Of a DNA stretch of 24,691 nucleotides, positions 278 through 23,063 are shown in pieces. The translations under genes were made by a program, and so were the position numbers. This DNA is from Coleofasciculus chthonoplastes F2-STO-03 (lineage in GTDB: Bacteria; Cyanobacteriota; Cyanobacteriia; Cyanobacteriales; Coleofasciculaceae), in contig JAVJWO010000068.1 of assembly GCA_040222015.1 (NCBI GenBank), positions 1-24,691 on the forward strand, written 5' to 3'. Within the stretch, counting starts at the first letter, position 1; each line of letters opens with the position of its first letter. The notes beneath the pieces are model-generated. The model searched no databases, was not told the DNA's origin, and saw nothing but the letters and a program-made list of their open reading frames with translations.

Positions 278-970
278 ATGTCTGTTAAAATCAATCAATC
301 TTCATTAGTCGAAATTCACAATCTCAACCATTACTTTGGAAAAGATAAATTAATAAAACAAACCTTATTCAACATTAACCTCGAAATTTTTTCAGGCGAA
401 ATCGTCATTATGGAAGGTCAATCAGGATCAGGAAAAACGACACTACTGACGTTAATTGGAGGACTGCGCTCTGTTCAGTCAGGCCGCGTAAAAATTTTAG
501 ATCGTGAGTTGTTTGGGGCTAGCGAAAAACAATTAATGTATATTCGTCGTCAAATTGGCTATATTTTTCAATCTCACAATCTGTTGCGGTTCTTAACGGC
601 TAGGCAAAATGTAAGTATGTCTTTGAAATTACACAACCATCTAAGCCAACAGAACGTTTACGAGCAATCGGTTGCCATGCTCCAGTCAGTAGGATTAGGC
701 GAATATCTAGATTACTATCCAGAAAAGCTTTCCGGGGGACAAAAACAACGCATTGCGATCGCTCGTGCCTTAGTAACTCAACCAAAGCTTGTTCTCGCTG
801 ACGAACCCACCGCATCTTTAGATAAAAACAGTGGTAGAGCTGTGGTCGAATTAATGCAAAAATTAGCGAAGCAACAAGGGTGTTCTATTCTCCTCGTTAC
901 TCACGACAGTCGAATCTTAGATATCGCCGATCGATTAATTCAAATGGAAGATGGTCATTTAATTAGTTAG
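278..970 (+). CDS. devA: DevA-family ABC exporter ATP-binding subunit
   Basis: Walker A GQSGSGKTT, Q-loop IGYIFQSHNL, signature LSGGQKQRIAIARAL, Walker B LVLADEPT, H-loop LVTHD; 230 aa; devB/devC nearby. Confidence 0.92.
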   Translation: MSVKINQSSLVEIHNLNHYFGKDKLIKQTLFNINLEIFSGEIVIMEGQSGSGKTTLLTLIGGLRSVQSGRVKILDRELFGASEKQLMYIRRQIGYIFQSHNLLRFLTARQNVSMSLKLHNHLSQQNVYEQSVAMLQSVGLGEYLDYYPEKLSGGQKQRIAIARALVTQPKLVLADEPTASLDKNSGRAVVELMQKLAKQQGCSILLVTHDSRILDIADRLIQMEDGHLIS

Positions 971-1037
971 GCGAAAATAAATGTAACATACAGTATTTCA
1001 GTTTATTTGGATTATATTGGATAGGCAAAACTTCATA

Positions 1038-1994
1038 CTAAGAAATAATTTCATCAATTGATAAAATAATTTTCCCAACTGCTCTGCCAGTTTCACTGTA
1101 TTGATGAGCGTTCGCAATTTCGGATAGCGCAAATACCTGATCAATGACTATTTCAAGTTTGCCGACTTCAATTAATCGATTGAACAACCTTAAATCTTGA
1201 GCTTTTGATTGAACGGCGATTATTTTTGCTTTTCGCTTTGATAAGATTAAAGTTGTTAATGAAGCGATTAGATTGCCAACAGTGGGTAAGGTTGTAACAT
1301 AGACTCCTGAGTTCGTAAGATTATTAATACATTCCGAAAAATTGCGTTTACCAACTGCATCAAAAATAAGGTCATATTTAATATTTTCTTGCGTAAAATC
1401 CTGCTGAGTATAGTCAATCACTCTATCCGCTCCTAATCGTTTCACTAAGGCTGAATTTTTTTGTCTGCATACTCCAGTCACTTTGGCATAGAGCGCATTA
1501 GAAATTTGAACGGCAAAGATACCAACTCCTCCTGATGCCCCATTAATTAAAACCTTCATTCCTGGCTTAATTTTTCCTAAATCCCACAGTGATTGTAGAG
1601 CTGCTAAACCTGCCACTGGAATAGCTGCTGCTTGCTCAAAGGATATATCCGGAGATTTCAATGCCACTATTTTGGATGGAACAGTGAGATATTGAGCATA
1701 AGCTCCTCCTTTGAGCGGATTAATAAATCCGTAAACCTCATCCCCTACCTGATAGTCTCTCACTTCGGAACCGACTTGCTGGACAATTCCGGCAAAATCA
1801 CAGCCAAGTTTTTTGGGACAAGTCCATCCCGATAATACTTTTAAGTCTCCGCGACGAATTTTCCAATCTATAGGATTGACACTAGAGGCTTTAACTTGAA
1901 CAAGAAGTTCATCAGAATTTGGAATCGGCTTCTCCACATTAATATATTTTAGAACATCAGCCGAACCATAAGAATTAGCTCGAATAGCTTTCAT
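1038..1994 (-). CDS. NAD(P)-dependent medium-chain oxidoreductase (quinone-oxidoreductase/enoyl-reductase-like MDR)
   Basis: MKAI start, SVNPIDWK, LGCDFAGIV, nucleotide-binding INGASGGVG, LGADRVIDY, C-terminal GKIIL; no obvious Zn-ligand cysteine cluster. Start placed at ATG 1994 rather than TTG 2003. Confidence 0.88.
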   Translation of the reverse strand: MKAIRANSYGSADVLKYINVEKPIPNSDELLVQVKASSVNPIDWKIRRGDLKVLSGWTCPKKLGCDFAGIVQQVGSEVRDYQVGDEVYGFINPLKGGAYAQYLTVPSKIVALKSPDISFEQAAAIPVAGLAALQSLWDLGKIKPGMKVLINGASGGVGIFAVQISNALYAKVTGVCRQKNSALVKRLGADRVIDYTQQDFTQENIKYDLIFDAVGKRNFSECINNLTNSGVYVTTLPTVGNLIASLTTLILSKRKAKIIAVQSKAQDLRLFNRLIEVGKLEIVIDQVFALSEIANAHQYSETGRAVGKIILSIDEIIS

Positions 1995-2029
1995 AAAAAA
2001 CAAAAGGTTAACTTGTCATGACTATATTC

Positions 2030-2039
2030 TAACCTACAT
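2030..2039 (-). promoter_or_regulatory. Recurrent upstream motif, copy 1 (plus strand TAACCTACAT)
   Basis: Exact 10-mer about 35 nt upstream of the MDR ATG; on the minus strand it runs into a TAGAAT -10-like hexamer. Confidence 0.4.
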
Positions 2040-2134
2040 TCCGTTTATTTCAGTTTACTCATAATATTAACTCTTCATTAACCTATTTTGCTCTAAGTTA
2101 GTACAATTGCCGATTGCAGACCAAAAATATTCTT

Positions 2135-3283
2135 TTAAAAAATATCGGCTGGATCGGCTGAATTCAGCCTTCGCATCGAAATTAATCCTGAAACACAACA
2201 CATAGCAATTGTTAAAATTAAAACTAAACTGGCTCTATTCACTGTCATCATAATAGGTAAATTTGTAGCATTAGCTGCTAAAGAATACAGTAACATTGTA
2301 ATTGATATGCCTGGAATATATCCCAAAATAGCTAAAATCATCGCTTCTTGAAAAATTACGAAAATAAAATACTTGTTATGATAACCAATTGCTTTTAAAG
2401 TTGCATATTCAGGAAGATGTTCGGAAATGTCAGTATAAAGAATTTGATAAACAATTAAAGTTCCGACAATAAAACCAATTCCTGTCCCCATGGCAAAAAT
2501 AAAACCAATGGCTGTACTTGTTTGCCAATAGCGACGTTCAAAATCAATAAATTCTTCTTGAGAAAAAAGGATGACATCTTGCGGCAAAATATTTCGCAAT
2601 GCTTTTTTAGCACTAATCAGATCAACTCCTTGTTTAAGTTTAATCACTCCCAGATCAACTAAGTCTGGATTTCGACGGGTAAATAATCGATGAAAATTAA
2701 TGTCACTGGTAATTAGATTGCCATCAGCCGCAAAGGATGCACCTAAAGAAAAGAGTCCTCCAATCTTCACTCGACGTTCTTCCATTTCCGTCGTTACCAT
2801 TTCTTGGTTTTGTAATAATTGCGGAATTTTACCAAATTCTTCTCTAGACATTTTATCAAATAAATAAACATCTTTTTGTTTAATTAACTCAATATTTTGA
2901 GTTAATCCTGGCAAATTTAGAGGATTTTTACTGGGATTAATGCCAAACACCAACAAGCCACGAGTTCTGCGATTAGTGGGATTTTTCCAGATCGCAAAAT
3001 CTAAAGAAACAGACGTAGCAGACTGAACTCCTTCGATCGCTAAAGATTGATAAATTCGTCGGCGAGCAAAAGGTTTCATCGTCACACTTGCATTAGATTG
3101 AGGACTGACCAAAAAAATGTCCCCATCAAAGCTTTTATGAAGTTTAACGTTGCTTTCAAATAAAGCGTCTTGAAAACCCAGTTGAACAAACATTAACAAA
3201 TCGGCAAAAGCGATACCAGATAATGCGACTAAAAAACGAATTTTTTCATATTTTAATTGTAACCAAGCTAAAGGTATTTTCAT
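2135..3283 (-). CDS. devC: DevC-family ABC exporter permease (FtsX-like)
   Basis: N-terminal IPLAWLQL..FADLLMFVQLGFQDALF, IVYQILYTDISEHLPEYATLKAIGY, C-terminal ADPADIF; ATGA overlap with devB stop. Confidence 0.93.
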   Translation of the reverse strand: MKIPLAWLQLKYEKIRFLVALSGIAFADLLMFVQLGFQDALFESNVKLHKSFDGDIFLVSPQSNASVTMKPFARRRIYQSLAIEGVQSATSVSLDFAIWKNPTNRRTRGLLVFGINPSKNPLNLPGLTQNIELIKQKDVYLFDKMSREEFGKIPQLLQNQEMVTTEMEERRVKIGGLFSLGASFAADGNLITSDINFHRLFTRRNPDLVDLGVIKLKQGVDLISAKKALRNILPQDVILFSQEEFIDFERRYWQTSTAIGFIFAMGTGIGFIVGTLIVYQILYTDISEHLPEYATLKAIGYHNKYFIFVIFQEAMILAILGYIPGISITMLLYSLAANATNLPIMMTVNRASLVLILTIAMCCVSGLISMRRLNSADPADIF

Positions 3284-4596
3284 AGTAAAATTTTAACTAA
3301 AACCTGTGAATAAGTTAATCGAGACACCCTTAAGCTATCTTGAGAATTTAACTCTATTTTGACGTCAACGACTCGATTATCGACATCTGAAGCAGGATCT
3401 GTATCAAATACTCCTTGTCGATTAATTAACCAGCCAATTTCCGTTACTTTACCCTTTATTTCTCCTGAAAAAGTTCCGTTTTCGCTCTTGATAATCGCGG
3501 ATTGACCCAGATTTACTTGGCTAATATCACTCTCGTAAACTTCTGCTTTTACCATCATTTGTTGAGTTTTTCCTAGTTCGACAATTCCTTTTTCTGGTAA
3601 AATAGTTTCCCCAGGATAACTGTGAATTTTGAGAATTCGCCCAGTAATTGGGGATTTAACATAGGTTAATTCTAGATCTTGTTGCGCCCTAGCAAGAGAA
3701 GCTTGCGCTCTTTCCAACTCTGCTTTTGCCTTCTGGACATCGACATCTCTCACTTCACTAATTTTCTCTAGGGTAGCCTTAGCTTCCTGAATTTGCTGCG
3801 ACAAGGTTTGTTGAGTTTTAATCAGATTGGCTTGAGCTTCACGGATTTCTTGCTCTAAAGTTGCCATCGTTTGCTCAAAAGTTGCTTGAGCTTCTTGTAA
3901 CCGTTTTTTGGCTGTTGCTTGGGTTAAGCGATGACGATCTAATTCAGAGGTAGAAATCGCCCCCTCTTGAGATAATTGTTCATAGCGTTGATATTCAATT
4001 TCAGCATTTTTTAGTTCAGCTTGTAAACGGCTAAGGGTTGCCTGTTGACTGGTTTGTTCTCCCAATCGCTCTGCATTTAACCGATTCAAAGTCGCTTGAT
4101 TAGTCAAATTTTCTCCGTGTAATTGTGCCTCTAATCGTCTAATAGTGGCTTTTTGGGCTTGAATTTCTCCAGGTTTTGCTCCAGCTTTGATAATTGCTAA
4201 ATTAGCCTGAGCCACTTTTACCTCTTGACGAGCTTCTTCAACGGCTGCTTTGAGTGACGCTTCATTTTCCAGAACCGCTACAATTTGATTGGCTTCAACA
4301 GGCTCTCCCTCTTGAACCCGTAATTCAACTACTTTTGCCCCACCCAAGTTAGGAGGAGGAGCTAAACGAATGCTTTTTCCTTTGGGTTCAAGTTGTCCCA
4401 ATGCTGTCACGGCTGTCACTTTTGTCTGGGATGATTCTGCTAGAGCAACTGAGGAAGAGGGAGAAGTATGTCTTATTTTGACAGCATAAAAAATATTGAC
4501 TCCTGTTGCCAGAAGTCCCATTACTGATAGGATCATCGCCCAGCGCATGGTCGGTTTTGGCAAAGGAACTTCTTTGAAAAGAAATTTGATAACCAT
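3280..4596 (-). CDS. devB: DevB-family membrane-fusion (HlyD-like) protein
   Basis: N-terminal TM segment, VTALGQLEP, long coiled coil, VKSPITGRILKI, AEVYESDI, DNRVVDVKI; coupled to devC. Confidence 0.92.
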   Translation of the reverse strand: MVIKFLFKEVPLPKPTMRWAMILSVMGLLATGVNIFYAVKIRHTSPSSSVALAESSQTKVTAVTALGQLEPKGKSIRLAPPPNLGGAKVVELRVQEGEPVEANQIVAVLENEASLKAAVEEARQEVKVAQANLAIIKAGAKPGEIQAQKATIRRLEAQLHGENLTNQATLNRLNAERLGEQTSQQATLSRLQAELKNAEIEYQRYEQLSQEGAISTSELDRHRLTQATAKKRLQEAQATFEQTMATLEQEIREAQANLIKTQQTLSQQIQEAKATLEKISEVRDVDVQKAKAELERAQASLARAQQDLELTYVKSPITGRILKIHSYPGETILPEKGIVELGKTQQMMVKAEVYESDISQVNLGQSAIIKSENGTFSGEIKGKVTEIGWLINRQGVFDTDPASDVDNRVVDVKIELNSQDSLRVSRLTYSQVLVKILL

Positions 4597-4626
4597 GTTG
4601 CTTACACTGAATTTATTTAAGGAAAA

Positions 4627-4679
4627 GCTGAGATGAAAAATAAAGAAAACTTTTGCCTTGCTTGAAACTTCATCTCAGC
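4627..4679 (-). terminator. Stem-loop (possible terminator or mRNA-stabilising hairpin) between the PEP-CTERM gene and devB
   Basis: Perfect 11-bp inverted repeat GCTGAGATGAA (4627-4637)/TTCATCTCAGC (4669-4679), 31-nt loop, followed by TTTTCC on the minus strand; 13 nt after the PEP-CTERM stop. Confidence 0.5.
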
Positions 4680-4692
4680 CGACTGTGAGCTG

Positions 4693-5643
4693 TTAATTTT
4701 GACGACGTTTATTGAACAAGGTAGCGAGTGTCCCTACTAAAAACAAACCGCCAATAGCAGAGGGTTCAGGAACTTGAACCGTTCTTAGGGTCAGTGGTAA
4801 TGGAAAATTGACGATAACATAACCCGTATCAGGATCGAAAATAGGTGTCGGATCTTCAACTACGCTATCTTCTACAACAACTTGCACCTTTCCTCCGTGT
4901 AAATTAACATCTAGTAAAAAGGCATTGGCTAACCCATCTGTTAAGGGATCTAAGCCAGCAACCTTTTGAACCGTTAGGGCTTGGGTTAAAAAGATATCTG
5001 TGTTATCGGTAATGGATTGAGTGGCTCCCTGGTCTAAAACAGCATACAGAGGACTATAGCCCAAGTTAATGAATTTTTTTGTATTGTTTATCACGAGAAA
5101 CGATTCCACTGCATCAGGATCAGCTTGATAAATCCTTTCTTCAATGCTTGAGTCGGGACTTGCCAACCAATCTTGTCCGAGTAAGTCATCTCCCAAATTC
5201 CAAGTTTCCGTAAAAGCTCGATCGTTTTTTTGGCCGTAGCCAAAACCAATCTCATTAAAATTTATGCTATTCTGATTGAGATATTGGAAAAAGTTAGTAA
5301 AGCCAGTCACTCCGTCTAAAGTTCCTGAACGAGTAGCATTACTTTGTTCTGGGCTAGACTGCCGACCCGTGGCATAGTAGGGAGCAATATTTCCGGGAGG
5401 AGAATTTTTACTGATTTCTAGGTGTCCACTATCAGGGGCACTGGGGTCGAGATTAAAAAAAGCCGTTTGTCCCTCATTCTCGTCGGGTTCTCCACTAAAG
5501 GATAGGAAATTATCAGAATTAATAGGTCTAACCGGAATCAGTTGCAGATCGTCAAAATTGATCGATGCAGCTTTAGCTGGCAAGGATGAAATAACTGTCG
5601 TTATGGTCAGACCAAGACAAAAATAAATTGTGCGAGTTTTCAT
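4693..5643 (-). CDS. Secreted PEP-CTERM sorting-domain protein of unknown function
   Basis: Signal peptide MKTRTIYFCLGLTITTVISSLPAKA; C-terminal VPEPS + hydrophobic helix + basic tail NKRRQN; AGGAG RBS at 5653-5657; acidic mature region. Confidence 0.9.
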   Translation of the reverse strand: MKTRTIYFCLGLTITTVISSLPAKAASINFDDLQLIPVRPINSDNFLSFSGEPDENEGQTAFFNLDPSAPDSGHLEISKNSPPGNIAPYYATGRQSSPEQSNATRSGTLDGVTGFTNFFQYLNQNSINFNEIGFGYGQKNDRAFTETWNLGDDLLGQDWLASPDSSIEERIYQADPDAVESFLVINNTKKFINLGYSPLYAVLDQGATQSITDNTDIFLTQALTVQKVAGLDPLTDGLANAFLLDVNLHGGKVQVVVEDSVVEDPTPIFDPDTGYVIVNFPLPLTLRTVQVPEPSAIGGLFLVGTLATLFNKRRQN

Positions 5644-5698
5644 GGCAAACGCTCCTAGTTACAGATTAACTAATATTTTCATTTTATCACAAAAGATA

Positions 5699-7111: not shown

Positions 7112-7173
7112 GAGAATAAAGAATCTATAAACAACTTATATTTTGGCTTAAATGCTGCGAACGAGTTGTGGAA

Positions 7174-7211: not shown

Positions 7212-7219
7212 AGGAGAAA

Positions 7220-10200
7220 CTAGAGCGTAAATTCTTTAATAACAGAAGACTGAACTTTGCTATTAGTAACTTGAGACTTTGCACAACGATTGACTGGGGT
7301 AAAAGGTTCTAGCATATTCTTTGACCCATAGAAAAACATATCCTGCTTACCAAAGACCTTGAGACATTCCCCGGTAATGCTGTCAACATGGGGAGATGCC
7401 AGGAAAGCAACAATCTCAGCAATTTGATGGGTGGGGATTGAACTATCGCGGTAGGCTTTAGGAGTGAGATCCGTATCCACAAATGCAGGACAAACCGCAT
7501 TAACTTGGATATTTTGTTGTTTAAGTTCCTCGGCTAAAGATTTTGTTAAACCGGCAACTCCATGTTTAGAAGCAGCATAGGCGCTAAAGAGAGGATAACC
7601 AATGACAGAAGAATCTGAACCCAAATTAATAATTTTACCCTTACCCCGCCGCAGTAAATAAGGAACAACCGTCCGACAGCAGTAATAAGTGCCAAAAAGA
7701 TTAACTTCGACAGTTTTGCGCCATTTTACAGGATCTGAATTAGCTAAGGTTGCAAAGCCAGTAATTCCCGCATTATTGACTAAAATATCAATCCCTTGCC
7801 ACTGCTCGACAATCTGCGCGATCGCGGCTTCTACTTGGTTTAATTCGCTAATATCGGTGGGAATGGCTATCGCCTGTCCACCCCATTGCTGAATTTGGTT
7901 GACAGTTTCCTGGAGTTGGTCTTGATGACGAGCTAAAACGGCTACTTTAGCACCTTGTTGGGCTAACTTAAGGGCGATCGCCTGACCAATTCCTCGTCCA
8001 CCTCCTGTAACAATAGCCACTTGTCCAGCTAATGGGAGAGAAGACAAATTTATAGGTTGGGGAGCATCTGGGGCTGGAGACTGATTGATTTTGGGTTGAG
8101 GAACCTCTGCGAGTAAAGATTGCAAGAGAGATATATATTGCTGTCCTAACTGTTGAATGGTGGTAGCCGAATGGAAATGCTCCGAGTATTCGAGTTGTAA
8201 CTCTAGACGGTTATCAACAACCGAGAAAAAGAACTCTAAAAGTGTCGTTCGTTTCTGTTCCGGCGGTGAAAGACGCCGATCCCAGTCTTCTTTCATAAAC
8301 TCAAACAGTGAAGACGGTTTAATATCCCGATTCCCCAGATAATTAGCCCGAACAGGCGTTAAATGATTATCGGGATACATGAAACTTGGGAGTCGCTCGC
8401 CTAACCAATCAAAAGTACCGCCATTCATTGGGACTGCCTCAAATTTATCCTTGATCTGTTGCAGCAGATCCTGCCAAGATTGGTCTGTTTCTATGGTTAA
8501 TCCTAGAGGAAAGTTGGTGGCAAAGTTACCAATACTATCAAAAAAATGCTTCTGCTTGCCTAAATTTCGACTATGGATTCGATGACTCAAAATAACATCA
8601 TGACGCTGGCTCCAGTTCGCCATTAAGCGGTATAAGGGAGCTAACAATAGAGAATAAACATTACAGTCATAGTGTTTTTTGGCATGAGTCAGGAGGTGTT
8701 TGGTTTCATCGGGGGATAAGTTAAACCATTCACTAGCAGCGGACGTTTCTAGATTCGCTCCCAATTGCTTGTCGAGAGGGATTTGAAATGTGGATTTGGC
8801 GGTAGGAAATTGGGCTTGCCAATAATCGAGGTGACTTTCTAAGTGTCCCTGTTCTTCTTCCTCCATCAATAAGCGCACATAATCAGCATAGGAAGAAGTT
8901 TGGGGGAAAGTGTCCAAAGGATTAGTCTTTCCTGACAATAATTGAGTATAGATTAACCAGAATTCTCGGAACAGGATTTGGTTGCTTAATAAATCCCCAA
9001 TAATATGATGTCCAATGGTGTTGATGTCGTAACAAGTATCATTCACTTTGACGACCAGTGCTTGAACTAGCGGCCATTGATTGATCCGAAATTCCTGTCC
9101 GATGGCTTTTATTTTCTGATGAATCTCCAGATTACGCTCTTCTGTACTTAGATGAGAACCATCATAAAAAATCGCTTTTAAAGCATTTTGATGATGAATT
9201 TCCTGTTGCCACCATTGTCCGTCTTCTTGGATAAAAATCGTTCGCAATGCCCAATGACGTTCAATTAAGTAATTAAGAGCTTGATTAAAGAGGCTTAGAT
9301 CCAGCGGTTGATGATAAAGACAACGACTGTAACCTGTCCATTGATATGGAGCCTCAAAGTAACGCACTAACCATCGTTGTGCTGGTCCTAAGGGAAGACG
9401 TTCTAATGAAACAGACTTTGCTTTTGTTGGCGAAGAAATTTTATCTGATGTCTGCGCTGGTTTACCTTGGAAATAAGCAAGCAGAGCCTTACGATCTAAT
9501 TTGCCGTTGTGATTTTTAGGCAAACTAGGTAACCACTCTATGCGGTGGGGGATCATATAATCTGTTAACTGACGGGCTAGATAATTTTTCATTTCTTGCA
9601 CATCAACCACAGATCCTGCTAAACCAGCCACTAAGCGTTTTTGTCCCTCCCCATAATCGAGAACGACGACTCCTGCTTCTTGAACGCTGGGATGAGATAG
9701 AAGAACCGTTTCAATTTCCCCGAGTTCAATGCGAAATCCCCGAATTTTTACCTGATGATCGATGCGACCATGATATTCAATGCTACCGTCTGGTAATTGT
9801 TTGGCGAGATCCCCGGTGCGATAGAGCGTTTTACCCTGAATATGAGGAAAAGGATTGGAACAAAAGGCTTTAGCTGTACGTTCGGGATCTTTGAGATAGC
9901 CTTTCGCTAACTGTACTCCTCCAATCCAAAGTTCTCCCATTTTCCCTGGGGGTAACGGCTGACGATTGTCATCCAAAATCAGCAGATCCACATTGTCAAT
10001 GGCTTTACCAATGGGAATACTGGTTTCTCCTTTCTGTCCGGGATGTTGACGAATAATATGAGCAGAGACATCAATGGACGCTTCAGTGGGTCCATAAAGA
10101 TTAGCCAATCCAGTGCTGTTTCCATACTGATCCAGCCATTTGTGAATAAAGGGAATGGGTAGGGCTTCTCCACTAAAAAACAGCCAGCGCAAATGGGGAA

Positions 10201-13458: not shown

Positions 13459-16400
13459 CTATTTAATATCGAAAGCTTTAGCTAGGGCTAAATAGCTTTG
13501 CTGGCGTTGATCAGCAGAAAGAATCGGCACAGTATCTGTTGGTCGTAATTCTTTAGATGAGGAAGGAATGCTAATGGATTGAATGGGTTCAGTCTGTCCT
13601 TGATTCGTGTGATCTGAGTTCACGGATTCCACTACAGGTGCTTGGTAAGGTTTATTGTCAAAAGGATAGATAAATAAAGGAACACGACGAGTCCCAAAAG
13701 CAAACAATTCTGAAGGTCTAAAACCTACACCATTCACATAAAAACGTGCCATTACTCTTAATAAAGCTTCAATTGTGTTTATTTCTGGACTAGGTACTTG
13801 CCAGATGACCGAAAGTTTATCTAGGCTAAGTCGATCCACCAAATCACTGGAATTACCTAAGTACAAGTAGATAGTTTCAGATTGCTTCGTTTCCTGAGCC
13901 AAATTCAGTGAACCGCCTAACTGGACAAAAGCACTTAACTGAAGACTAGACACCTGAGTCGTTGGATGAAATATCCCTTTAGGAGTAACTAGAGGGCAAT
14001 GCCAATTTAAGGACTTTTCTTCTTCTGTTTGAATCTTCTTAGCCGGAATAACAATTTTTTCCCCTTCCAACCGAGCTAAGGCAGCTAAAGCTTCTTCTAG
14101 GGTTAATAGTCCGGTGAAACAGGCTCCCACTAAAATACCAATGCCTGCTACTAATAGTTTTTTCGGTTCGACATCCAGAAACTTTAACCAAGACAAATAG
14201 GCATATTGGCTAGCAAAATCGTGAATTTTAGTTGAGGATTGAGGATAATTAATAAACGGTTTCCACCGAGATTGACACGCTTCATAAGCTGATTTATACA
14301 CTGGAAACTGTTGTCCAATGGTTGTGACATCTTCGACGCTTAAGTGATTAGTACCATCTAAGATTAAAGAGAGCGGTGTTGAACGTTTAGGATTGGCTCG
14401 TCCCCGATAAATCTCTGAAGGTTGACAATCATTCGTTATTGCCTCAAGATAATCTAACAATTGTTGCCGCTCTTTGACGACGAAAGCGGCTTTAGAGGGA
14501 AATTCCTTCTGAGCTTGATTCATGGTGAAACAAACCTCAGCTATTTCCTGTTCGGGATAAGCGAGTAGATGCTCACGGAGTTGACTGGCAATCTGTTGTA
14601 ATTTAGCAGGAGTACGAGCCGTTAAACAAAGTAAATAAGATGGGGTATCATCCGTTATCCTTGGCGAAGAGGATAAGATTGGTGCTTGTTGAAGAATAAT
14701 ATGAGCATTGGTTCCGCCAAAGCCAAACCCATTTACCCCGGCTCGCAGAGGATGCTCTTGATTTGACCAGGACATTCCCTGTTCTCCCACCACATAAAAG
14801 GGCGTTTTTGCAAAATCGATATTGGGATTAGGACTTTGATAACCTTGGGTTCCTGGAATGTGTTGATGCTGCATCGATAGCACCACTTTAATCAGGCTGA
14901 GAATGCCAGAAGCGGATAAGCCATGACCAATTGAGGATTTTACTGAACCGATTCCACAAAATTGTTGGCACTCTGTAAAGGTGCGAAAGGCTTGAGTCAT
15001 TCCTTCTATTTCAATCGGATCGCCGAGTAACGTCCCAGTCCCGTGAGTTTCAATATAATTGATGGTTTCAGGAGCAATCCCTGATTGCTGATAGGCTTGA
15101 CGAATTGCTTTAGCTTGTCCTTGGGGATTTGGCGCGGTAATCCCTTGGGAATGACCGTCATTGTTAATGGCTGAACCTTTAATTACCCCATGGATATAAT
15201 CTCCATCGGCGATTGCTTGTTGTAACGGTTTTAAAAGAATAACCCCTGCGCCTTCTCCGATGACCATACCATTTGCTCTACTGTCGAATGGATAACAAGT
15301 TCCTGTCTCAGACAGTGCCTGAACGCGGCTGAGAAAGGTTAAGGGAGTAGGACTCAGATTTAAGTTAACACCGCCCACAATTGCCATCGAACTTTGCCCA
15401 GAGCGCAGGCTGTCACAGGCTAAGTGCAGTGCTACCAGAGAGGAAGAACAAGCGGTGCTAACCGATAAACTCGGTCCCGTGAGATCCAAACAATGGCTAA
15501 TTCGGGCGGCAAGTTGGTTTAATTCGTTTCCAGCCGCCGTTTCTGACAGAATTTCACTGGGTTGGAGGATTTCAATTAAAGTATTTTGCAAAGCCTGACG
15601 ATTTTGCTCAGGTAACTGATTAAACCATTCACTGGTTTCTAATCGTTGGCATAATGCACCATAGGACTGATAGTTTATAAAATGTTCTACATAGTTATTT
15701 TGTCCACAACCGACAAAGACACTAATGTCTTGAGTGCGGTTTTTGCTACCATATCCTGCCTGGAATAGAGCTTGCCAAACCAGTTGTAGAACAAGCCGTT
15801 GTTGGGGGTCTATTGCCATTGCTTCCTTTGGCGATATCCCAAAAAACAGGGGGTCAAAGTCATAGGGATTGTCAATAAAACCACCCCATTTACAATAGGT
15901 CTTATATGGAGTTTGTTTAGTGGGTTCAAAATAATCTTTCGTTGACCAACGGCTACTCGGAACAGAACCAATGGCGGAGCGCCCCTGACTGAGTAAATTC
16001 CAGTATTCTTCTAAATTGTTGGCTCCTGGGACTTTACACGCCATGCCAATGATCGCAATATCGGTTACAAGATTTTTTTCTGGGTTTTGGCTGATTTGTC
16101 CTGTTTGAGTGGATGTAGTCGCAGAAACAGTTAAGGGAGAGGTAAAAACTTTCTGATTATCTTCAAAATATTTTACTAAGGCATCAAGACTTTGATACTC
16201 AAATAAAATAGTGGGAGATAATTGGGTATTCAGACTTTGATTTAACTGTTGAATTACCTCAATTCCGGCTAAAGAATCTAATCCCAGTTCTGAGAAGCTT
16301 TGATATCCTTCGATTTGTTCCACCGACAGCTTAATATGCTCACAGAGAATCTCTTTCACTAAATCTTCTAGATGAGTCACCTGAGCCTTCGGTAATGATG

Positions 16401-19400
16401 AAGGGGAGACATCTGTCGTGGAAGAAGATGAGGAAAGAGCCGTTGTCTGAGAAGACGATCGAACAAAGTCAATAATATGCGTGACAGCAGGAGTAGAACT
16501 GGTCAAGGTGTCAATAAAGGAATTAACAGCAGCTTCGGGTTCTAACAGATTCATTCCTTTCGCTCTCGCAACCATGACTAAAGCTTGACCTCCAATTTTC
16601 GCCATTCCCCGATCGCGCCAGAGGGCAAAGTTAATCGCTAAGGAACGACCCGAAGCAGGTTGTTGTGACCGATAAAGGGCATAGTGGTCAAGGAACGCAT
16701 TAGCAGCCGCATAATCACTTAAATTCGTTCCCCATTCTGCTTTAGAGGCAGCCGCCGAAGAAATCATCACAAAAAACTTGAGCGGCTCAGAACGAGTGAT
16801 GGTATCGAGAATCACTGTTCCTTGGAGTTTGGGAGCAAACACTGGGGCAACCGTTTGCCAACTCTTCTGATGGAATTTGAAGTTTTTCTGATCCTGAACC
16901 CCAGCTGCATGAATCACTCCATCAAGATGACCAAAGCGATCGCGGACTTTATCCATTAATTGAGCCATTGCATTTGCATCAGTGACATCGACCGCCTCAT
17001 ACAAGACAGTTGCACCCAATTCTTCTAATTGTTGAATGATCCCGATGCGATCGCATTGAGGATGATGATTAGCCAGTAATTGAGTCCATTGTTCTTTGGG
17101 GGGTAAAGATTGACGACCGATTAACACCAAATTCAGGCTAGCCTGACGAACTAATCCCATGGCAATTTCTGAGGCAACGGCACTGGTTCCTCCGGTAATC
17201 AAATAGGTATCTCCATCCCTAATCACTTCTTCTATCGGTTGTTTGGGAACGGCTGGCATTGGTACTAGGATTCGTCCTAGTCGTTGTTCCCCTCGAATCG
17301 CAATAATTCCTTCGCCAGTGGGAGGAGTCCGAAGTTCTTGCCAGAGGATATGTCCTAATTGCCCTGATTTCAAGATTTTTGGCATTAGGTCTACAACTTT
17401 GGTTTTAAAACTGGGATTTTCCTGAGCTAATACTTGTGTTAGCGTCGCACCGATAATTTGATGAATTCCTTGAATAGGATGATGTAGCGTAACCGCATAG
17501 TTACCTAAAGTCAACTGCAGAAAAGCAATGGACTGTTTAGGGCAATGTTTGAGCAAGGCTTGTCCCACAAATAGGACACTGTAGTCATTTTCAGCCAGTA
17601 TCCTATCAGAAATATCCAGATCATTCTCCGGATGAAGACCGTTCCACAAATGAATCACGGCGACGATTGGCTGCTGATCGGATTCGGATTGAATGGCTTT
17701 TATTAACTGCTCATAATCTTGAGGATTAGCTGGATTCAGGGTAAATTGATCAGCCGAGCGAGAGAAAGATTGACCTGGAATAGCCCAATAGAGGGGGTGG
17801 CTATTTTGAGAGATGTGCTTAGCTAAATCTTCACCCCAGGTTTTGGACTCTCCCAAGACTAAAATAGCACCAGAGGATAAATCTTGAGGCGCACTCAGGG
17901 GTTCAGGTTGCCACTGCCACTGATAAAACCAAGGATGTTGGAATTGAATCACTGGCGGTAAGTTGGGTTCAGAAGGTTGAGGAGGTTGAGGAGACGGATT
18001 AGACTTAGATTTAGGAACAGGAACTTCAACGGATTCCCAGTAACGCTGATGCTCAAAGGGATAATTGGGAAGACGCACAGGACGGCGTTGATAATCTTGG
18101 TCAAACTTTAACCAATCGATGTCAACGTCTTGCAGATATAACTGTCCCAAACTATTGAGAAAAGGAATCCAATCGGGCTGTCCTCGTTTAAGGGAAGGCA
18201 ACCAGAGAGACGATGGCTCAGAGAGACAACGCTGCCCCATACTTAATAGCGTAGAATTCGGTCCGATTTCCATAAAGAGGCGATAGCCTTCTTGGGCGAG
18301 TTTTTCCATCCCATCTGAGAAGCGGACAGTTTCTCGCAGATGAAGACTCCAATAGGTAGCATCAGGAACTTCGCCCGGTTTCCAAAATTGACCGGTTAAA
18401 TTAGATAGTAGTGAGCAGTTAGGGGCTTGAAAGGAAAGGGTATTAGCAAAGGCTTCAAAAGAATCCAAAATGGGAGCCATGAGCGGCGAATGGAAAGCAT
18501 GGGAAACTTGAAGTTGGCGAAACTGAATGCCTTGCCCTCGCAACAAGTCCAATACGTCCTGTACCTTGTCTTTTCGTCCAGAAATAACCACATTGCTAAC
18601 CCCATTAATGGTAGCAATTGCTACTTGCTCTTGGTAAGGCTCAATTAGCGGCGCGATCTGCGCTTCAGACGCAAAGACAGCCACCATCATGCCATTTTTG
18701 GGCAAACTTTGCATTAGACGCGCCCGTTCTGCTATTAATCGCAGTCCATCTTCGAGGCTAAAAACCCCAGCAACACAGGCGGCGGTGTACTCTCCCACAC
18801 TATGTCCCATTACGGCATCGGGAACAATGCCATAACTTTGCCAGAGGTGTGCCAAAGCGTATTCTAGGGCAAAAAGAGCTGGTTGGGTGTAAGCAGTCTG
18901 ATGGAGATGGGGGGAATCGGCATTTTTTGGATACAGCACCGATAACAAGGGCAATTCCAAGTAATCCCGCAAAAGTTCATCACATTGATTCAGTATGCGA
19001 CGAAAAGTCGGTTGGGTTTCGTATAACACCTTTCCCATACCAGTATACTGAGATCCTTGCCCCGTAAACAGAAAAGCAATGGGATTGGCTTCAGCTTGTA
19101 TGGGAAGCTCTCGATAGAGAAATCGATGGTGATCTGAGGAAAGAGCAAATTCTCCCAACTGTTGCCGTAGATCCTCAATCGATTCCGCCACAATCGCCAG
19201 ACGATGTTTAAAATGAGACCGTCGAGTCAGGGTTGTAAAGCCAATATTGGCTAAGGAATCAGAGGTTTCTGCCAATGCCGTCGAGTAACGTTTCGCTAAT
19301 CGTTGTAAGGCATTTTTACTTTTAGCCGATAAAGTAACAAGATGATGAGAACGTTCTAAGGGAGCTTGCTGAATTTGAGTCGGTTCTTTTTTATCCGCAG

Positions 19401-19413
19401 GTGATAAAGTCAT
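13459..19413 (-). CDS. Type I PKS: AT(malonyl)-KR-ACP-KS-degenerate AT
   Basis: KS-AT linker HLVTLSAKS, AT1 FTGQGSQY/GHSVG/HAFH, KR (AAGV, YAAANAFLD), ACP LGLDSLAG, KS STACSSS/ETHGTGT/SIGH/FGFGGTNAH, AT-like tail with VAGIG in place of GHSxG; no DH, ER or TE. Confidence 0.9.
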   Translation of the reverse strand: MTLSPADKKEPTQIQQAPLERSHHLVTLSAKSKNALQRLAKRYSTALAETSDSLANIGFTTLTRRSHFKHRLAIVAESIEDLRQQLGEFALSSDHHRFLYRELPIQAEANPIAFLFTGQGSQYTGMGKVLYETQPTFRRILNQCDELLRDYLELPLLSVLYPKNADSPHLHQTAYTQPALFALEYALAHLWQSYGIVPDAVMGHSVGEYTAACVAGVFSLEDGLRLIAERARLMQSLPKNGMMVAVFASEAQIAPLIEPYQEQVAIATINGVSNVVISGRKDKVQDVLDLLRGQGIQFRQLQVSHAFHSPLMAPILDSFEAFANTLSFQAPNCSLLSNLTGQFWKPGEVPDATYWSLHLRETVRFSDGMEKLAQEGYRLFMEIGPNSTLLSMGQRCLSEPSSLWLPSLKRGQPDWIPFLNSLGQLYLQDVDIDWLKFDQDYQRRPVRLPNYPFEHQRYWESVEVPVPKSKSNPSPQPPQPSEPNLPPVIQFQHPWFYQWQWQPEPLSAPQDLSSGAILVLGESKTWGEDLAKHISQNSHPLYWAIPGQSFSRSADQFTLNPANPQDYEQLIKAIQSESDQQPIVAVIHLWNGLHPENDLDISDRILAENDYSVLFVGQALLKHCPKQSIAFLQLTLGNYAVTLHHPIQGIHQIIGATLTQVLAQENPSFKTKVVDLMPKILKSGQLGHILWQELRTPPTGEGIIAIRGEQRLGRILVPMPAVPKQPIEEVIRDGDTYLITGGTSAVASEIAMGLVRQASLNLVLIGRQSLPPKEQWTQLLANHHPQCDRIGIIQQLEELGATVLYEAVDVTDANAMAQLMDKVRDRFGHLDGVIHAAGVQDQKNFKFHQKSWQTVAPVFAPKLQGTVILDTITRSEPLKFFVMISSAAASKAEWGTNLSDYAAANAFLDHYALYRSQQPASGRSLAINFALWRDRGMAKIGGQALVMVARAKGMNLLEPEAAVNSFIDTLTSSTPAVTHIIDFVRSSSQTTALSSSSSTTDVSPSSLPKAQVTHLEDLVKEILCEHIKLSVEQIEGYQSFSELGLDSLAGIEVIQQLNQSLNTQLSPTILFEYQSLDALVKYFEDNQKVFTSPLTVSATTSTQTGQISQNPEKNLVTDIAIIGMACKVPGANNLEEYWNLLSQGRSAIGSVPSSRWSTKDYFEPTKQTPYKTYCKWGGFIDNPYDFDPLFFGISPKEAMAIDPQQRLVLQLVWQALFQAGYGSKNRTQDISVFVGCGQNNYVEHFINYQSYGALCQRLETSEWFNQLPEQNRQALQNTLIEILQPSEILSETAAGNELNQLAARISHCLDLTGPSLSVSTACSSSLVALHLACDSLRSGQSSMAIVGGVNLNLSPTPLTFLSRVQALSETGTCYPFDSRANGMVIGEGAGVILLKPLQQAIADGDYIHGVIKGSAINNDGHSQGITAPNPQGQAKAIRQAYQQSGIAPETINYIETHGTGTLLGDPIEIEGMTQAFRTFTECQQFCGIGSVKSSIGHGLSASGILSLIKVVLSMQHQHIPGTQGYQSPNPNIDFAKTPFYVVGEQGMSWSNQEHPLRAGVNGFGFGGTNAHIILQQAPILSSSPRITDDTPSYLLCLTARTPAKLQQIASQLREHLLAYPEQEIAEVCFTMNQAQKEFPSKAAFVVKERQQLLDYLEAITNDCQPSEIYRGRANPKRSTPLSLILDGTNHLSVEDVTTIGQQFPVYKSAYEACQSRWKPFINYPQSSTKIHDFASQYAYLSWLKFLDVEPKKLLVAGIGILVGACFTGLLTLEEALAALARLEGEKIVIPAKKIQTEEEKSLNWHCPLVTPKGIFHPTTQVSSLQLSAFVQLGGSLNLAQETKQSETIYLYLGNSSDLVDRLSLDKLSVIWQVPSPEINTIEALLRVMARFYVNGVGFRPSELFAFGTRRVPLFIYPFDNKPYQAPVVESVNSDHTNQGQTEPIQSISIPSSSKELRPTDTVPILSADQRQQSYLALAKAFDIK

Positions 19414-20838
19414 TTATAAGTCCCCCTCTCCTATAATTATGTGAACATTCGTCCCACTCATACCAAAAGAACTAACCCCAGCCAATCGGGATTCCTCTTG
19501 TGCTTGCCAAGGCATTAATTGGTTAGGGACAGTAATGGGAAGTTTCAGCCAAGGAATATAAGGATTAGGTTTTTTGAGATGAAGATGAGGGGGAATCTGC
19601 TTATTTTTTAAGGACAGAACAACTTTCATGAAACTGGCAATTCCTGCTGCTCCTTCGAGATGCCCTAAATTGGTTTTGACAGAACCTACGATTAAGGGGG
19701 TGTCAACAGAACGGGTTTTTCCAAGAACATTTCCGAGAGCTTGGACTTCAATCGGATCTCCTAAAGAGGTTCCGGTTCCGTGGGCTTCGACATACTGAAT
19801 TTGTTCAGGAGAAACCCCAGCATTCACGAGAGCTTTTTGAATTACTGCTTCTTGAGCTAAACCGTTAGGGGCTGTCAATCCATTGCTTAATCCATCATGA
19901 TTAACAGCTGAACCTCGAATAACCGCCAAAATCGGATCGTTGTCTCTAACCGCATCGGACAATCGTTTGAGAACAACAATTCCTCCCCCTTCTCCTCGAA
20001 CATAGCCATCAGCTTGAGCATCAAAAGTTTTACAGCGGTTATCAGGGGTTAAAGCCCTCATTTTACATAAACCAATGGTGGTTTCGGGACTAAGCATCAA
20101 GTTGATGCCTCCAGCTAAGGCGAGATTACATTCTCCTGAATGTAGACTCTGAGTGGCTAAATGCACAGATAGGAGAGAAGAGGAACAAGCCGTATCCACT
20201 TCCATTACAGGACCTCGGAGATTCAAAGAGTAAGCTAACCGCCCCGCAGCCATACAGCGTAAAGCCCCTAGACTCCGATAAACATTGAGATTTTCCCGCT
20301 CATATCCATTAATCAGGAGATGGGCGTAGTCATCTGCCGTGAGTCCGATAAAGACACCCGTTTGACTCCCACTGAACTGGGTAACAGGCTGTCCAGCATT
20401 TTCTAGGGCTTCCCAAGCTATCTCTAACAATAAACGCTGTTGAGGATCAATCGCTGCGGCTTCTTTAGGTGAAATTCCGAAAAAATGGGGATCAAACTGG
20501 TCAATATCGTCTAAAAAACCACCATAACGGGTGTACATTTTACCGGGGGCATCAGGATTTGGGTCATAATAGTCATCAATATTCCAGCGTTGATCAGGAA
20601 CTTCTGTGATTGCATTAATTCCTTGGGATAAAAGCTGCCAATAGGCTTCTGGAGTGTTAATTTCTTGAGGAAAACGACATCCCATGCCAATAATGGCAAT
20701 CGGTTCATGTTGTCGAGTTTTCAGAGTTTGTAAGTCAACTTCAAGTCGCTTTATTTCTAGAAAAGCTTTTTTCAAAAGCGATTTGTAGTTAACCGGGGAA
20801 GATGGAGGATGTAATTTCGATTCTACTTGAGCAATCAT
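19414..20838 (-). CDS. Stand-alone type I ketosynthase with N-terminal docking domain
   Basis: Docking helix LLKKAFLEIKRLEVDL, EPIAIIG, DPQQRLLLE, DTACSSS, EAHGTGT, NLGHLEGAAG, SSFGMSGTNVH; ATGA overlap with FAAL gene stop. Confidence 0.9.
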   Translation of the reverse strand: MIAQVESKLHPPSSPVNYKSLLKKAFLEIKRLEVDLQTLKTRQHEPIAIIGMGCRFPQEINTPEAYWQLLSQGINAITEVPDQRWNIDDYYDPNPDAPGKMYTRYGGFLDDIDQFDPHFFGISPKEAAAIDPQQRLLLEIAWEALENAGQPVTQFSGSQTGVFIGLTADDYAHLLINGYERENLNVYRSLGALRCMAAGRLAYSLNLRGPVMEVDTACSSSLLSVHLATQSLHSGECNLALAGGINLMLSPETTIGLCKMRALTPDNRCKTFDAQADGYVRGEGGGIVVLKRLSDAVRDNDPILAVIRGSAVNHDGLSNGLTAPNGLAQEAVIQKALVNAGVSPEQIQYVEAHGTGTSLGDPIEVQALGNVLGKTRSVDTPLIVGSVKTNLGHLEGAAGIASFMKVVLSLKNKQIPPHLHLKKPNPYIPWLKLPITVPNQLMPWQAQEESRLAGVSSFGMSGTNVHIIIGEGDL

Positions 20839-23063
20839 GATTGTTGACTCTGTTGTATTATTTCTAGTTCTTGACTTAACAGGTTTGCTATTTCAAGTTC
20901 CGACATAGAATCAAGTAATTGTTCCATATCCGCTAATTCAGAAGGCTGTTGTACCCCTTTATTGCTGACTGTTTCAGTAGTAAATAATTGGCTGGTATAT
21001 GGATTATAATGAGCTAAATAGGCAGCAGCATCAGCAATAGAAGGAAAGTTCCAAACTAGAGTTATTTCAATCTCTTTGCCTAACCAGCGCCCTAATTGTT
21101 CGACCAATTCCACGGCTATCACAGAGTCAAGACCATAGTCAGCAAAAGGACGTTGAGGATCAATCTGCTGAGGAGTTAACTGTAACGCTTGAGCGAGCCA
21201 GCTAATCATCCATTGTTGAATATCTAGAACTGTAGTCGGTGCAGGAGCATGAGCCATTTGGGGAACAGCACCAGACACTGGGTTATTGGCATTCCAGACA
21301 GCTATAACTGCTAAATTATCTTCTAAAAAGCCTTGTTTACAGGCATGACGCTGAATTTTACCACTAGAGGTTTTGGGAATGCTGGCGGTTTTGAGTAAGA
21401 TAATACTTTGTACTTGTAGTTCATGGATTTCTGAGATAGATCGGCGGATGGCAGCAAAGACTTCTTCTTCTTTTAACTTACGCAGATGGGTGCGTTCTAC
21501 TTCTTGAACAACAACTAACTTTTCAGTCCCTCCCTGTTCAATAGCAAAGGCAGCGCCACAACTGGCTCTAAGAGCTGGATGACTTTTCTCAACGGTTGAT
21601 TCAATATCTTGAGGATAATGGTTACGACCTCGGATAATGATAAGATCTTTTAGACGACCGGTAACAAATAATTCTCCGTCATGAATAAAACCTAAGTCTC
21701 CTGTACGTAGAAAAGATCCTTCACCACTATCTGCTAAGTAAGCCTGGAAGGTTTCTTTTGTTAATTCTTCTCGATTCCAATAACCTTGAGTGACACTTGA
21801 GCCGGCCACCCAAATTTCTCCTACTTGTTGTTCTTGGCATTGGATTTTCGTTTGCGGATCGACAATTTTCATCTGCTCAAAAAAGTTGCGTCCGCAGCCG
21901 ACAATGGTTTTGCTGACTTCTGATTCATCTTTTAAGAGTTCTACCTGATGTTGCTGTAAAGCGGTTTCGTCTATGGGTTGCAGAACCGGAGGCTCTGTTT
22001 TTCGTGATCCGGAAATAAACAGGGTTGCTTCTGCCATCCCATAACAAGGATAGAAGGCTTGAGGACTGAAGCCATAGGGCGCAAATTTTTCGCTAAATTG
22101 TTGGATTGTTTTTGCCTGAATCGGTTCAGATCCATTAAAAGCAATTTTCCAACTGCTAAGGTCTAAGTCATGACACTGTTCAGGTGTAATTTTCCGCACA
22201 CATAAATCGTAGGCTGAATTAGGTCCTCCACTGACAGTGGCTCGATAATGACTAATGGCTTGTAACCAGTGAATTGGCTTTTGTAAGAAAGCAACGGGGG
22301 GCATCAGATTACAGGAGACTCCTAAATATAGAGACTGCAAGACATTTCCGATCAATCCCATGTCATGGAATAGGGGTAACCAACTGACGTAAATCTCTGT
22401 TTCATCGTTTTGAAATGCCAACTTGATCATCTGTTCGTTGTGGATGAGGCTGCCGTGACTGACCATAACCCCTTTGGGAGTTCCTGTTGAACCTGATGTG
22501 TATTGAAGAAATGCTAGTATATCTTTATCGATGATAGTTTCTTGCCAATCTCTAGCTAATGAAGCAGCTAGATTTTCTGTGATTACCCACTTTACCTCTG
22601 TTAATCGAAGCTCTTCAAAAAAACTAGAATATTTATTTTTAACCTTCTCTAAAATGGAGGTAGTTGTCAAAATTAAAGTGGCTTGGGAATCTTTGATAAC
22701 TGAAGTGAATCTAGCTAGGTGATGATTAGAACGAGGGGGATAGATGGGAACAGCAATCACCTGAGCATACAAACAGCCTAAAAAAGCCGTAATAAATTCT
22801 AATCCAGGGGGATAAAGCATTAAAGCTCGTTCACCCGGTTTGGTAATTGATTGCAGATAGGCGGCAATGGCACATGCCTGTCGATCTAGCTCTTGATAGG
22901 TAAGTTGATCAGACTCGGTCACTCCATCTGACAAAAATCGATAGGCTAGTTTATGGGGTTGATGTTGCGCTTGATACCGTACAAGGTTTACCAAAGTAGG
23001 CACTTGAGACAAATTTTTCGTGATGGGAGTTTCTCGACCTTCAGCAAGTGTAGTTACTTTCAT
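20835..23063 (-). CDS. Fatty acyl-AMP ligase fused to ACP and C-terminal docking domain (starter module)
   Basis: LAFLQYTSGSTGTPKG, WLPLFHDMGLIG, PCYGMAEATL, IIIRGRNHYPQDIE, IPKTSSGKIQR; ACP FADYGLDSVIAVEL; acidic C-terminal helices; GAGGA RBS upstream. Confidence 0.93.
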   Translation of the reverse strand: MKVTTLAEGRETPITKNLSQVPTLVNLVRYQAQHQPHKLAYRFLSDGVTESDQLTYQELDRQACAIAAYLQSITKPGERALMLYPPGLEFITAFLGCLYAQVIAVPIYPPRSNHHLARFTSVIKDSQATLILTTTSILEKVKNKYSSFFEELRLTEVKWVITENLAASLARDWQETIIDKDILAFLQYTSGSTGTPKGVMVSHGSLIHNEQMIKLAFQNDETEIYVSWLPLFHDMGLIGNVLQSLYLGVSCNLMPPVAFLQKPIHWLQAISHYRATVSGGPNSAYDLCVRKITPEQCHDLDLSSWKIAFNGSEPIQAKTIQQFSEKFAPYGFSPQAFYPCYGMAEATLFISGSRKTEPPVLQPIDETALQQHQVELLKDESEVSKTIVGCGRNFFEQMKIVDPQTKIQCQEQQVGEIWVAGSSVTQGYWNREELTKETFQAYLADSGEGSFLRTGDLGFIHDGELFVTGRLKDLIIIRGRNHYPQDIESTVEKSHPALRASCGAAFAIEQGGTEKLVVVQEVERTHLRKLKEEEVFAAIRRSISEIHELQVQSIILLKTASIPKTSSGKIQRHACKQGFLEDNLAVIAVWNANNPVSGAVPQMAHAPAPTTVLDIQQWMISWLAQALQLTPQQIDPQRPFADYGLDSVIAVELVEQLGRWLGKEIEITLVWNFPSIADAAAYLAHYNPYTSQLFTTETVSNKGVQQPSELADMEQLLDSMSELEIANLLSQELEIIQQSQQS

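Follow-up and report, generated by a model that had tools for sequence, protein, structure and literature searches.

The 24,691-nucleotide contig JAVJWO010000068.1 of the cyanobacterium Coleofasciculus chthonoplastes F2-STO-03, which was analysed over its whole length and is called the window below, carries a gene cluster in which a fatty-acid-AMP ligase (FAAL), a polyketide synthase (PKS) and a nonribosomal peptide synthetase (NRPS) probably constitute an intact assembly line for an acyl-serine amphiphile. As judged from the encoded proteins, this amphiphile would be processed by an altered epimerization-type domain (E*) and a short-chain dehydrogenase/reductase (SDR), exported by a major facilitator superfamily (MFS) transporter and a DevBCA pump, and met outside the cell by a PEP-CTERM protein as its likely partner. 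The window contains 11 credible open reading frames (ORFs) of at least 100 amino acids (aa), ten of which form the cluster, and all cluster genes except devA lie on the minus strand. The ORF list, together with Pfam and NCBIfam scans of the whole proteins and of cut pieces, gave the order FAAL-ACP / KS / AT-KR-ACP-KS-AT0 / ACP-ACP-C-PCP-A-E*-SDR, followed by the genes for MFS, the PEP-CTERM protein, devB, devC, a medium-chain dehydrogenase/reductase (MDR) and devA (ACP, acyl carrier protein; KS, ketosynthase; AT, acyltransferase; AT0, inactive AT; KR, ketoreductase; C, condensation domain; PCP, peptidyl carrier protein; A, adenylation domain). This reproduces the domain and gene order claimed in an earlier note on this DNA. 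The claim of that note that thioesterase (TE), dehydratase (DH), halogenase and enoylreductase (ER) are lacking was likewise borne out: the Pfam scan revealed no TE, DH, halogenase or in-line ER in any window ORF of at least 100 aa, and no reductase (R) domain, heterocyclization (Cy) domain or Dieckmann cyclase was detected among the ORFs.

The biosynthetic logic proposed in the earlier note (a fatty acid, one or two extensions, serine, processing by the E-like and SDR domains, export) fits every domain call when two extensions are assumed. The FAAL would put a fatty acid on its ACP, after which KS1, AT, KR and ACP would add one malonyl unit and reduce its keto group. KS2 would then add a second malonyl unit on the tandem ACPs of the NRPS, with AT1 loading both modules, and the C domain would link the chain by an amide bond to Ser-S-PCP. 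The FabG-like SDR could most simply supply the keto-reduction that is missing from module 2, and E*, which retains its His base, would epimerise and/or release the acyl-serine and thus carry out or gate off-loading. We predict that the line makes an N-(3,5-dihydroxy- or 3-oxo-5-hydroxy-acyl)-serine, either as such or cyclised, whose release may proceed by hydrolysis, epimerisation or tetramate cyclisation. The serinol, oxazoline or dehydroalanine-type lipids that the earlier note gave as examples are speculative, and neither a reductive-release domain nor a Cy domain occurs in the line. The MFS protein would move the product over the inner membrane, the MacB-like DevBCA pump would then expel it from the periplasm, and the PEP-CTERM surface protein would be its likely extracellular partner.

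Loading, extension and serine activation

The FAAL protein carries a fused ACP at aa 622-683. The motifs TACSSS, HGTGT and GH can be read in the translation of the free-standing KS1, and both KS domains retain the Cys and the two His motifs. Module 2 has no in-line reductive domains according to the Pfam scan. The 355-aa tail behind KS2 is without a Pfam match but aligns to AT1 around the active site (E 3e-4), and it has AGIGI where AT1 has GHSVG; it therefore appears to be a dead AT, in agreement with the AT0 call of the earlier note.

At the KS/AT junction (19411-19422) the TAA of the KS gene is directly followed by ATG, with GGAG ten bases upstream. The same split was present in the related genome G038, and G037 has the fused form (2512 aa). 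In an environmental relative that is 96% identical the split is kept with a different junction: contigs from two RNA-library runs have a 1-nt deletion at 19420, which creates an ATGA overlap. Since the split was found both in G038 and in the environmental relative, it is a real gene boundary, and neither a sequencing error nor a nonsense mutation accounts for it. Among RNA libraries, three metatranscriptomic runs yielded contigs 95-99% identical to the window, which covered 16, 23 and 21 of 30 bins, with pieces of up to 4.6 kb (NRPS), 8.6 kb and 6.7 kb (PKS-KS-FAAL); some cluster parts, e.g., 4808-5461 and 7424-8077, were uncovered in all four runs, from which no conclusion was drawn. These contigs lend weak support to transcription. 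It could be argued that the cluster is silent or decaying, considering that the KS/AT junction might stem from a nonsense mutation and that a TE is lacking. We find this highly improbable, as every reading frame is open and the catalytic motifs are intact, the KS/AT split is shared with G038 and kept with another junction in the environmental relative, the conservation across phyla is strong, and contigs occur in RNA libraries.

The two ACPs at the N-terminus of the NRPS are 85% identical as proteins, and their DNA forms a 247-nt direct repeat with 88% identity and a spacing of 357 nt, which was found by a direct-repeat search and missed by Tandem Repeats Finder. Judging from this similarity, they are a recent tandem duplication. 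Several close NRPS homologues fall short of it by about 130 aa, with a query coverage of 91-93%, which is consistent with a single ACP. Only about 34 residues separate the A domain from E*, with no carrier between them; lacking a carrier behind it, the A domain has to load the PCP that precedes it. Across 16 homologues, which represent four phyla, the PCP serine does not vary.

The FscH and EntF A domains were among the top three solved relatives of the A-domain pocket stretch. In the alignment to EntF (5ja1), the nine columns that we take to form the serine pocket read D-I-W-H-F-S-L-I-D against D-V-W-H-F-S-L-V-D of EntF, so that seven of the nine are equal. The pocket residues are invariant in the 16 homologues, except for the column aligning to the first F of EntF. 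The pocket thus supports serine as the predicted substrate and backs the corresponding claim of the earlier note.

A family of related loci and the release step

To describe the family, one genome per species was scanned, which resulted in 80 loci, and E* was counted as present when the identity was at least 33% over at least 70% of its length. The altered E* was present in 57 of the 80 loci (33 cyanobacterial and 24 others), and the family spans cyanobacteria, Firmicutes, Proteobacteria and Anaeromyxobacter. A word-based search retrieved full-length NRPS proteins with the same Pfam set, 53-84% identical in cyanobacteria and 40-46% identical over 92-98% of the length in Clostridium, Paenibacillus, Bacillus cytotoxicus, Halalkalibacter, Methylocaldum and others. 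The annotated Firmicutes loci contain the NRPS, the MFS gene and one FAAL-ACP-KS-AT-KR-ACP-KS protein of 3070-3100 aa, and two proteobacterial loci contain MMPL, FAAL-ACP-KS-AT-ACP-KS, NRPS, MFS, a phosphopantetheinyl transferase and an Acg-family FMN oxidoreductase. Among 41 genomes related to the window, matches extending past the A domain were found only in four (G000, G003, G037 and G038), which indicates that the distribution is patchy. The matches listed from relatives contained no stop codons, save for one generic A-domain match.

In the accessible parts of the literature, including PMC3250452, PMC10088813, PMC11837247, PMC4247773 and PMC11063209, no described domain order or product of this kind was found. 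The portion of PMC7522474 available to us assigns circularin A to a PKS-NRPS region of C. beijerinckii; whether that region is a homologue of the family could not be told. By its sequence similarities, the cluster is a member of a large orphan family that extends over several phyla and for which we found no described product. The earlier note had described the architecture as unlike any characterised cluster; this agrees with the literature consulted, but the cluster is not singular, being one of many across phyla.

Several other genes recur in the family. A DUF4386 protein of about 250 aa, which is not in the window, was present in 13 loci (12 cyanobacterial and one from Desulfobacterales; e.g., L054:6596-7366). 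An Acg/Rv3131-type FMN oxidoreductase adjoins the synthase in ten non-cyanobacterial loci (e.g., L046:26427-27614, L066:18247-19413 and L067:17912-19435). We considered whether this nitroreductase-like gene could encode a SagB-type azoline oxidase leading to an oxazole, and rejected it: the protein matches the Acg/Rv3131 family, and scored above the cut-off in one of three loci. In the betaproteobacterial locus L066, a gene for a LuxR-type autoinducer-binding regulator lies close by as well.

The best solved relatives of E* are E domains (PvdL, 141 bits; BacC, 126; TycA/TycB, about 101; GrsA, 60), whereas the C domain neighbouring the E domain of PvdL scores only about 40 bits against it. On these scores, E* derives from an epimerase domain. 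Its HHxxxDG site reads HHIIGDL, with both His and the Asp retained and the Gly replaced by Leu, and the stretch aligned to EGHGRE of the PvdL E domain reads SHRIHSR, so that EGHGRE is not conserved. The residues H1477, H1478, D1482, S1618, H1619, R1620 and R1624 are invariant in the same 16 homologues. In E domains, the first Glu of EGHGRE serves as the second catalytic residue; if this assignment is right, E* would differ from a standard epimerase and represent a conserved derivative whose active site has changed. The SDR behind it has the TGxxxGIG and YxxxK motifs and, among solved structures, is closest to FabG-type 3-oxoacyl reductases (E 1e-40 to 1e-48). The C-terminal domain of the NRPS is thus a classical adh_short/FabG-like SDR and not a thioester reductase (NAD_binding_4), and in the search of E*-SDR against solved structures only generic SDRs and E domains were matched. 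An SDR is fused in 21 of the 24 non-cyanobacterial and in seven of the 33 cyanobacterial loci.

The main rival to the acyl-serine reading is that the product is a 3-acyl-5-hydroxymethyl-tetramic acid, released by a Dieckmann reaction in which E* deprotonates C2 of the beta-ketoamide. Module 2 would then leave a beta-keto group, the E-derived domain would act as a carbanion-forming catalyst on PCP-bound acyl-aminoacyl thioesters, and the SDR would act later or on the side chain. Such a route would suit a module 2 that is without KR, DH and ER in every annotated family locus, the lack of a fused TE or R domain in any member seen, an E* that has kept its His base, lost EGHGRE and gained invariant Arg and His residues, and an SDR that is dispensable in most cyanobacterial members. 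However, the FabG-like SDR, which is found here and in the great majority of the non-cyanobacterial loci, most simply reduces the 3-oxo group, and this reduction would block Dieckmann chemistry. Moreover, we know of no Dieckmann cyclase of the C/E type, and nothing relevant to acyl-tetramates in these taxa was found in the literature. We therefore consider the tetramate unlikely.

Transporters, the PEP-CTERM protein and points against the reading

For the accessory genes, all ORFs of the 80 loci and of the window were clustered (n = 81), and flank-restricted counts were made on the loci whose downstream flank behind E* is 2.5 kb or longer (25 cyanobacterial and 23 other). An MFS homologue lies beside the NRPS in 37 of the 81 loci (17 cyanobacterial and 20 other); with the flank restriction it was present in 22 of the 23 non-cyanobacterial and 16 of the 25 cyanobacterial loci. 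The MFS gene is a core gene of the family across phyla. PEP-CTERM homologues occur in 18 of the 81 loci, all cyanobacterial, and the flank-restricted counts were 18 of 25 cyanobacterial and none of 23 other loci. In the 41 related genomes, they were found in four, which are the four with the synthetase, on the same contig and a few kb apart. The PEP-CTERM protein is thus a cluster-specific partner in cyanobacteria. Because the MFS gene is core across phyla and the PEP-CTERM gene strictly co-occurs with the synthetase, these accessory genes are not random neighbours. In three cyanobacterial loci the PEP-CTERM gene is tandemly duplicated (L014 17111-19303, L021 20623-22722 and L033 16315-17933).

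The DevBCA genes are distributed differently, as devB and devC were each found in four of the 81 loci, the window included, and devC in three of the 25 flank-restricted cyanobacterial loci. In the three other DevBCA loci the order NRPS-MFS-PEP-CTERM-devB-devC-devA is colinear, with devA directly after devC and DevC 51-72% identical. In the window devA is opposite in strand to devBC and convergent with them, and the MDR gene lies between devC and devA. The MDR protein weakly matches the ER region of Pks2 and, resembling PKS ER regions, might serve as an ER in trans. Homologues of this protein are encoded in the G037 and G003 loci and in one of the 25 cyanobacterial loci; the latter has the size and gene order of G003:C98 and is possibly the same record.

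It is conceivable, though rather doubtful, that DevBCA, MDR and devA simply adjoin a PKS-NRPS-MFS-PEP-CTERM cassette and handle a different substrate. This would account for the rarity of devC and MDR in the cyanobacterial loci with enough flank (3/25 and 1/25), for the inverted devA with the MDR gene between it and devC, and for the use of MMPL or MFS alone in non-cyanobacterial loci. At the same time, it is at odds with the colinear arrangement in the three other loci, which hold the closest SDR-bearing synthetases, and with the short gaps between genes lying on one strand in the window. The earlier note had credited the cluster with its own DevBCA exporter: the three subunits do score above their NCBIfam cut-offs, but the link holds for one sublineage only.

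The PEP-CTERM protein has a signal-like N-terminus and a tail that reads, in translation, VPEPS, a transmembrane helix and KRRQN; both the signal-like segment and the tail are kept in most of the 18 homologues. The PEP motif, the transmembrane helix and the basic tail, together with a TIGR02595 score above the cut-off, uphold the earlier classification. Two PF09721 (exosortase) matches above the cut-off were found on other contigs of the same genome. A profile search of 1.84 billion representatives returned only 63 relatives at E ≤ 0.001, of which 33 reached 1e-30 or better, and in a few distant relatives the domain opens large surface proteins that have Calx-beta, DUF11 or T9SS tails. No Pfam family covers this domain, and the ESM Atlas returned only the protein's own cluster.

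An AlphaFold2 (AF2) model built from the alignment of the 18 sequences reached pLDDT 80.1 and pTM 0.77; a single-sequence AF2 model (pLDDT 30.3) was discarded. Foldseek found no match to the former model in the PDB at E ≤ 0.001. The best VIA-align match had Z 5.5 (7x80_A, rmsd 3.5, 116 aligned), and many small beta-barrels came next with Z 4-5. The proteins matched in this weak way are small beta-barrels whose ligands or substrates are lipophilic, but as such Z values are common for the tool, no fold family is claimed, and the model hints at most at a resemblance to small-ligand barrels.

We also considered whether the product could be a dedicated envelope lipid, either the exosortase acceptor for the PEP-CTERM protein or its surface-held ligand. 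The strict co-occurrence of the protein and the synthetase within a few kb on one contig, the very small size of the protein family, the large surface proteins among its distant relatives, the weak likeness of the model to small-ligand barrels and the exosortase genes in the genome would all be in keeping with such a role. However, none of the 23 non-cyanobacterial loci has the PEP-CTERM protein, and since the Firmicutes and Proteobacteria members are without it, the core role of the lipid does not need it; in addition, there is no known exosortase acceptor for comparison, and the fold matches are weak. Taken together, we regard this alternative as very unlikely. Only slightly better placed is a bolder combination, to which we give little credence: E* could be a new off-loading catalyst yielding a TE-less tetramate or lactone, in an ancient cross-phylum cassette for a lipid signal or metal binder, and a dedicated PEP-CTERM beta-barrel, added in cyanobacteria, would receive this lipid or be anchored via it at the cell surface. 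If true, this would be the first natural-product pathway having its own exosortase-sorted partner.

Several points weigh against the acyl-serine reading itself. The best NCBIfam matches of the FAAL were fatty-acid-AMP ligase models, all of them under the curated cut-offs (PRK05850, 483.8 bits with a cut-off of 775; FadD32, 456 bits with a cut-off of 975). The serine code is based on the EntF alignment and on the columns that we take to form the pocket. A type II thioesterase, which occurs in 17 of the 81 loci, is not in the window, so that hydrolytic release would be without an obvious catalyst. The absence of the SDR from 26 of the 33 cyanobacterial loci implies that it is not essential to the core chemistry of the family. 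DevBCA is present in only three other loci, and with devA inverted and the MDR gene inserted its link to the cluster may be local. Finally, the RNA-library contigs stem from an environmental relative of about 96% identity, and DNA carry-over is possible; they do not prove transcription.

The coordinates of the cluster are collected in Table 1. Of the ORFs outside it, the 215-aa frame at 23350-23997 on the minus strand, 5' of the FAAL gene, had no Pfam or NCBIfam match, and its sole match was a 35%-identical stretch in the related locus L039. A frame of 149 aa at 10155-10604 on the plus strand, antisense within the A-domain region of the NRPS, was unsupported and is most likely a chance open frame.

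Table 1. Genes and domains of the cluster, with positions in the window and the basis of each assignment.
Feature	Position	Strand	Basis
FAAL-ACP loading protein, 742 aa	20835-23063	-	AMP-binding 240.6 bits, AMP-dom_DIP2-like, PP-binding
Free-standing KS1, 474 aa, separate from its AT	19414-20838	-	ketoacyl-synt 331.7 bits
PKS: KS-AT linker, AT, KR, ACP, KS2, AT0	13459-19413	-	Pfam matches; AT0 by alignment to AT1
AT1	18130-19074	-	Pfam
KR	16615-17208	-	Pfam
PKS ACP	16168-16362	-	Pfam
KS2	14842-16062	-	Pfam
AT0	13462-14526	-	Alignment to AT1; no Pfam match
NRPS, 2072 aa	7220-13438	-	ACP-ACP-C-PCP-A-E*-SDR
NRPS tandem ACPs	13123-13369 and 12766-13012	-	Pfam and repeat search
C, motif HHxxxDG	11345-12682	-	Pfam
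PCP, aa 723-787	11078-11272	-	Pfam
A, aa 809-1313	9500-11014	-	Pfam
E*, C-superfamily, aa 1347-1782	8093-9400	-	Pfam and solved-structure relatives
SDR, aa 1806-2028	7355-8023	-	adh_short, 216.8 bits
MFS transporter, 386 aa	5951-7111	-	MFS_1 159.7 bits
PEP-CTERM protein, 316 aa	4693-5643	-	TIGR02595 24.9 bits (cut-off 16)
devB-type membrane fusion protein	3280-4596	-	TIGR02971 321.1 bits (cut-off 129)
devC-type FtsX/MacB-like permease	2135-3283	-	TIGR01185 555.8 bits (cut-off 290.35); 4-nt overlap with devB
MDR, zinc-ADH/quinone-oxidoreductase-like	1038-2003	-	ADH_zinc_N_2, ADH_N
devA-type ABC ATPase	278-970	+	TIGR02982 358.5 bits (cut-off 295.8)

Significance and comparison with known systems

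The conservation of a TE-less, permuted PKS-NRPS from cyanobacteria to clostridia, Paenibacillus and Proteobacteria, usually together with an MFS gene, points to a common lipid. If the structure of one member's product were solved, many genomes could be annotated together, and the role of an epimerase-derived domain without the Glu would be revealed. Through the strictly co-occurring PEP-CTERM protein there is a rare opportunity to learn the function of exosortase-sorted proteins and what happens to a lipophilic product once it is outside the cell.

In columbamide-type cyanobacterial pathways a FAAL and an ACP start the chain, a PKS extends it, a serine NRPS module follows, and the line ends in an R domain and involves halogenases. 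The cluster described here shares the FAAL-ACP start, the PKS-extended fatty acid and the serine-activating NRPS, which would likewise give an acyl-serine-derived amphiphile. It differs in the PCP placed before A, the E*-SDR end, the AT0 and tandem ACPs of module 2, and the absence of a halogenase and an R domain. Compared to the E domains of TycA, TycB, GrsA, PvdL and BacC, the HHxxxD motif and the overall motif series are recognisable in E*, whereas HHxxxDG is modified to HHIIGDL and EGHGRE is replaced by SHRIHSR, both invariant in the family, so that the presumed second catalytic Glu is missing. E* also stands at the end of the line, and no C domain follows that could take a D-configured chain.

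VibF of vibriobactin synthesis (Cy-Cy-A-C-PCP-C) likewise has an A domain without its carrier directly behind it and ends in a C-type domain that no carrier follows, although its domain set is different, it has no PKS part and its context is that of a siderophore. The tetramate PKS-NRPS hybrids (equisetin type and polycyclic tetramate macrolactams), which are released by R*, TE or separate Dieckmann cyclases, resemble the cluster in a last PKS module without KR that is followed by C, A and a carrier for one amino acid; here, by contrast, there is no R*, TE or Dieckmann cyclase, and an SDR is fused instead. As regards export, DevBCA-HgdD exports heterocyst glycolipids in Anabaena, and the three subunits in the window pass the NCBIfam cut-offs for DevA, DevB and DevC. 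Here they adjoin a PKS-NRPS and not hgl genes, devA is inverted and the MDR gene is inserted; and, unlike in the hgl island, there is an NRPS, and the Pfam and NCBIfam scans of the window detected no glycosyltransferase.

Thus, on the domain evidence, the cluster resembles the FAAL-primed PKS-NRPS lipoamide pathways but does not conform to the patterns of reductive release, tetramate hybrids, canonical E domains or the hgl island. It is less singular than the earlier note held, and it stands out by its well-supported exporter gene and by a new PEP-CTERM partner that is strictly linked to the synthetase.

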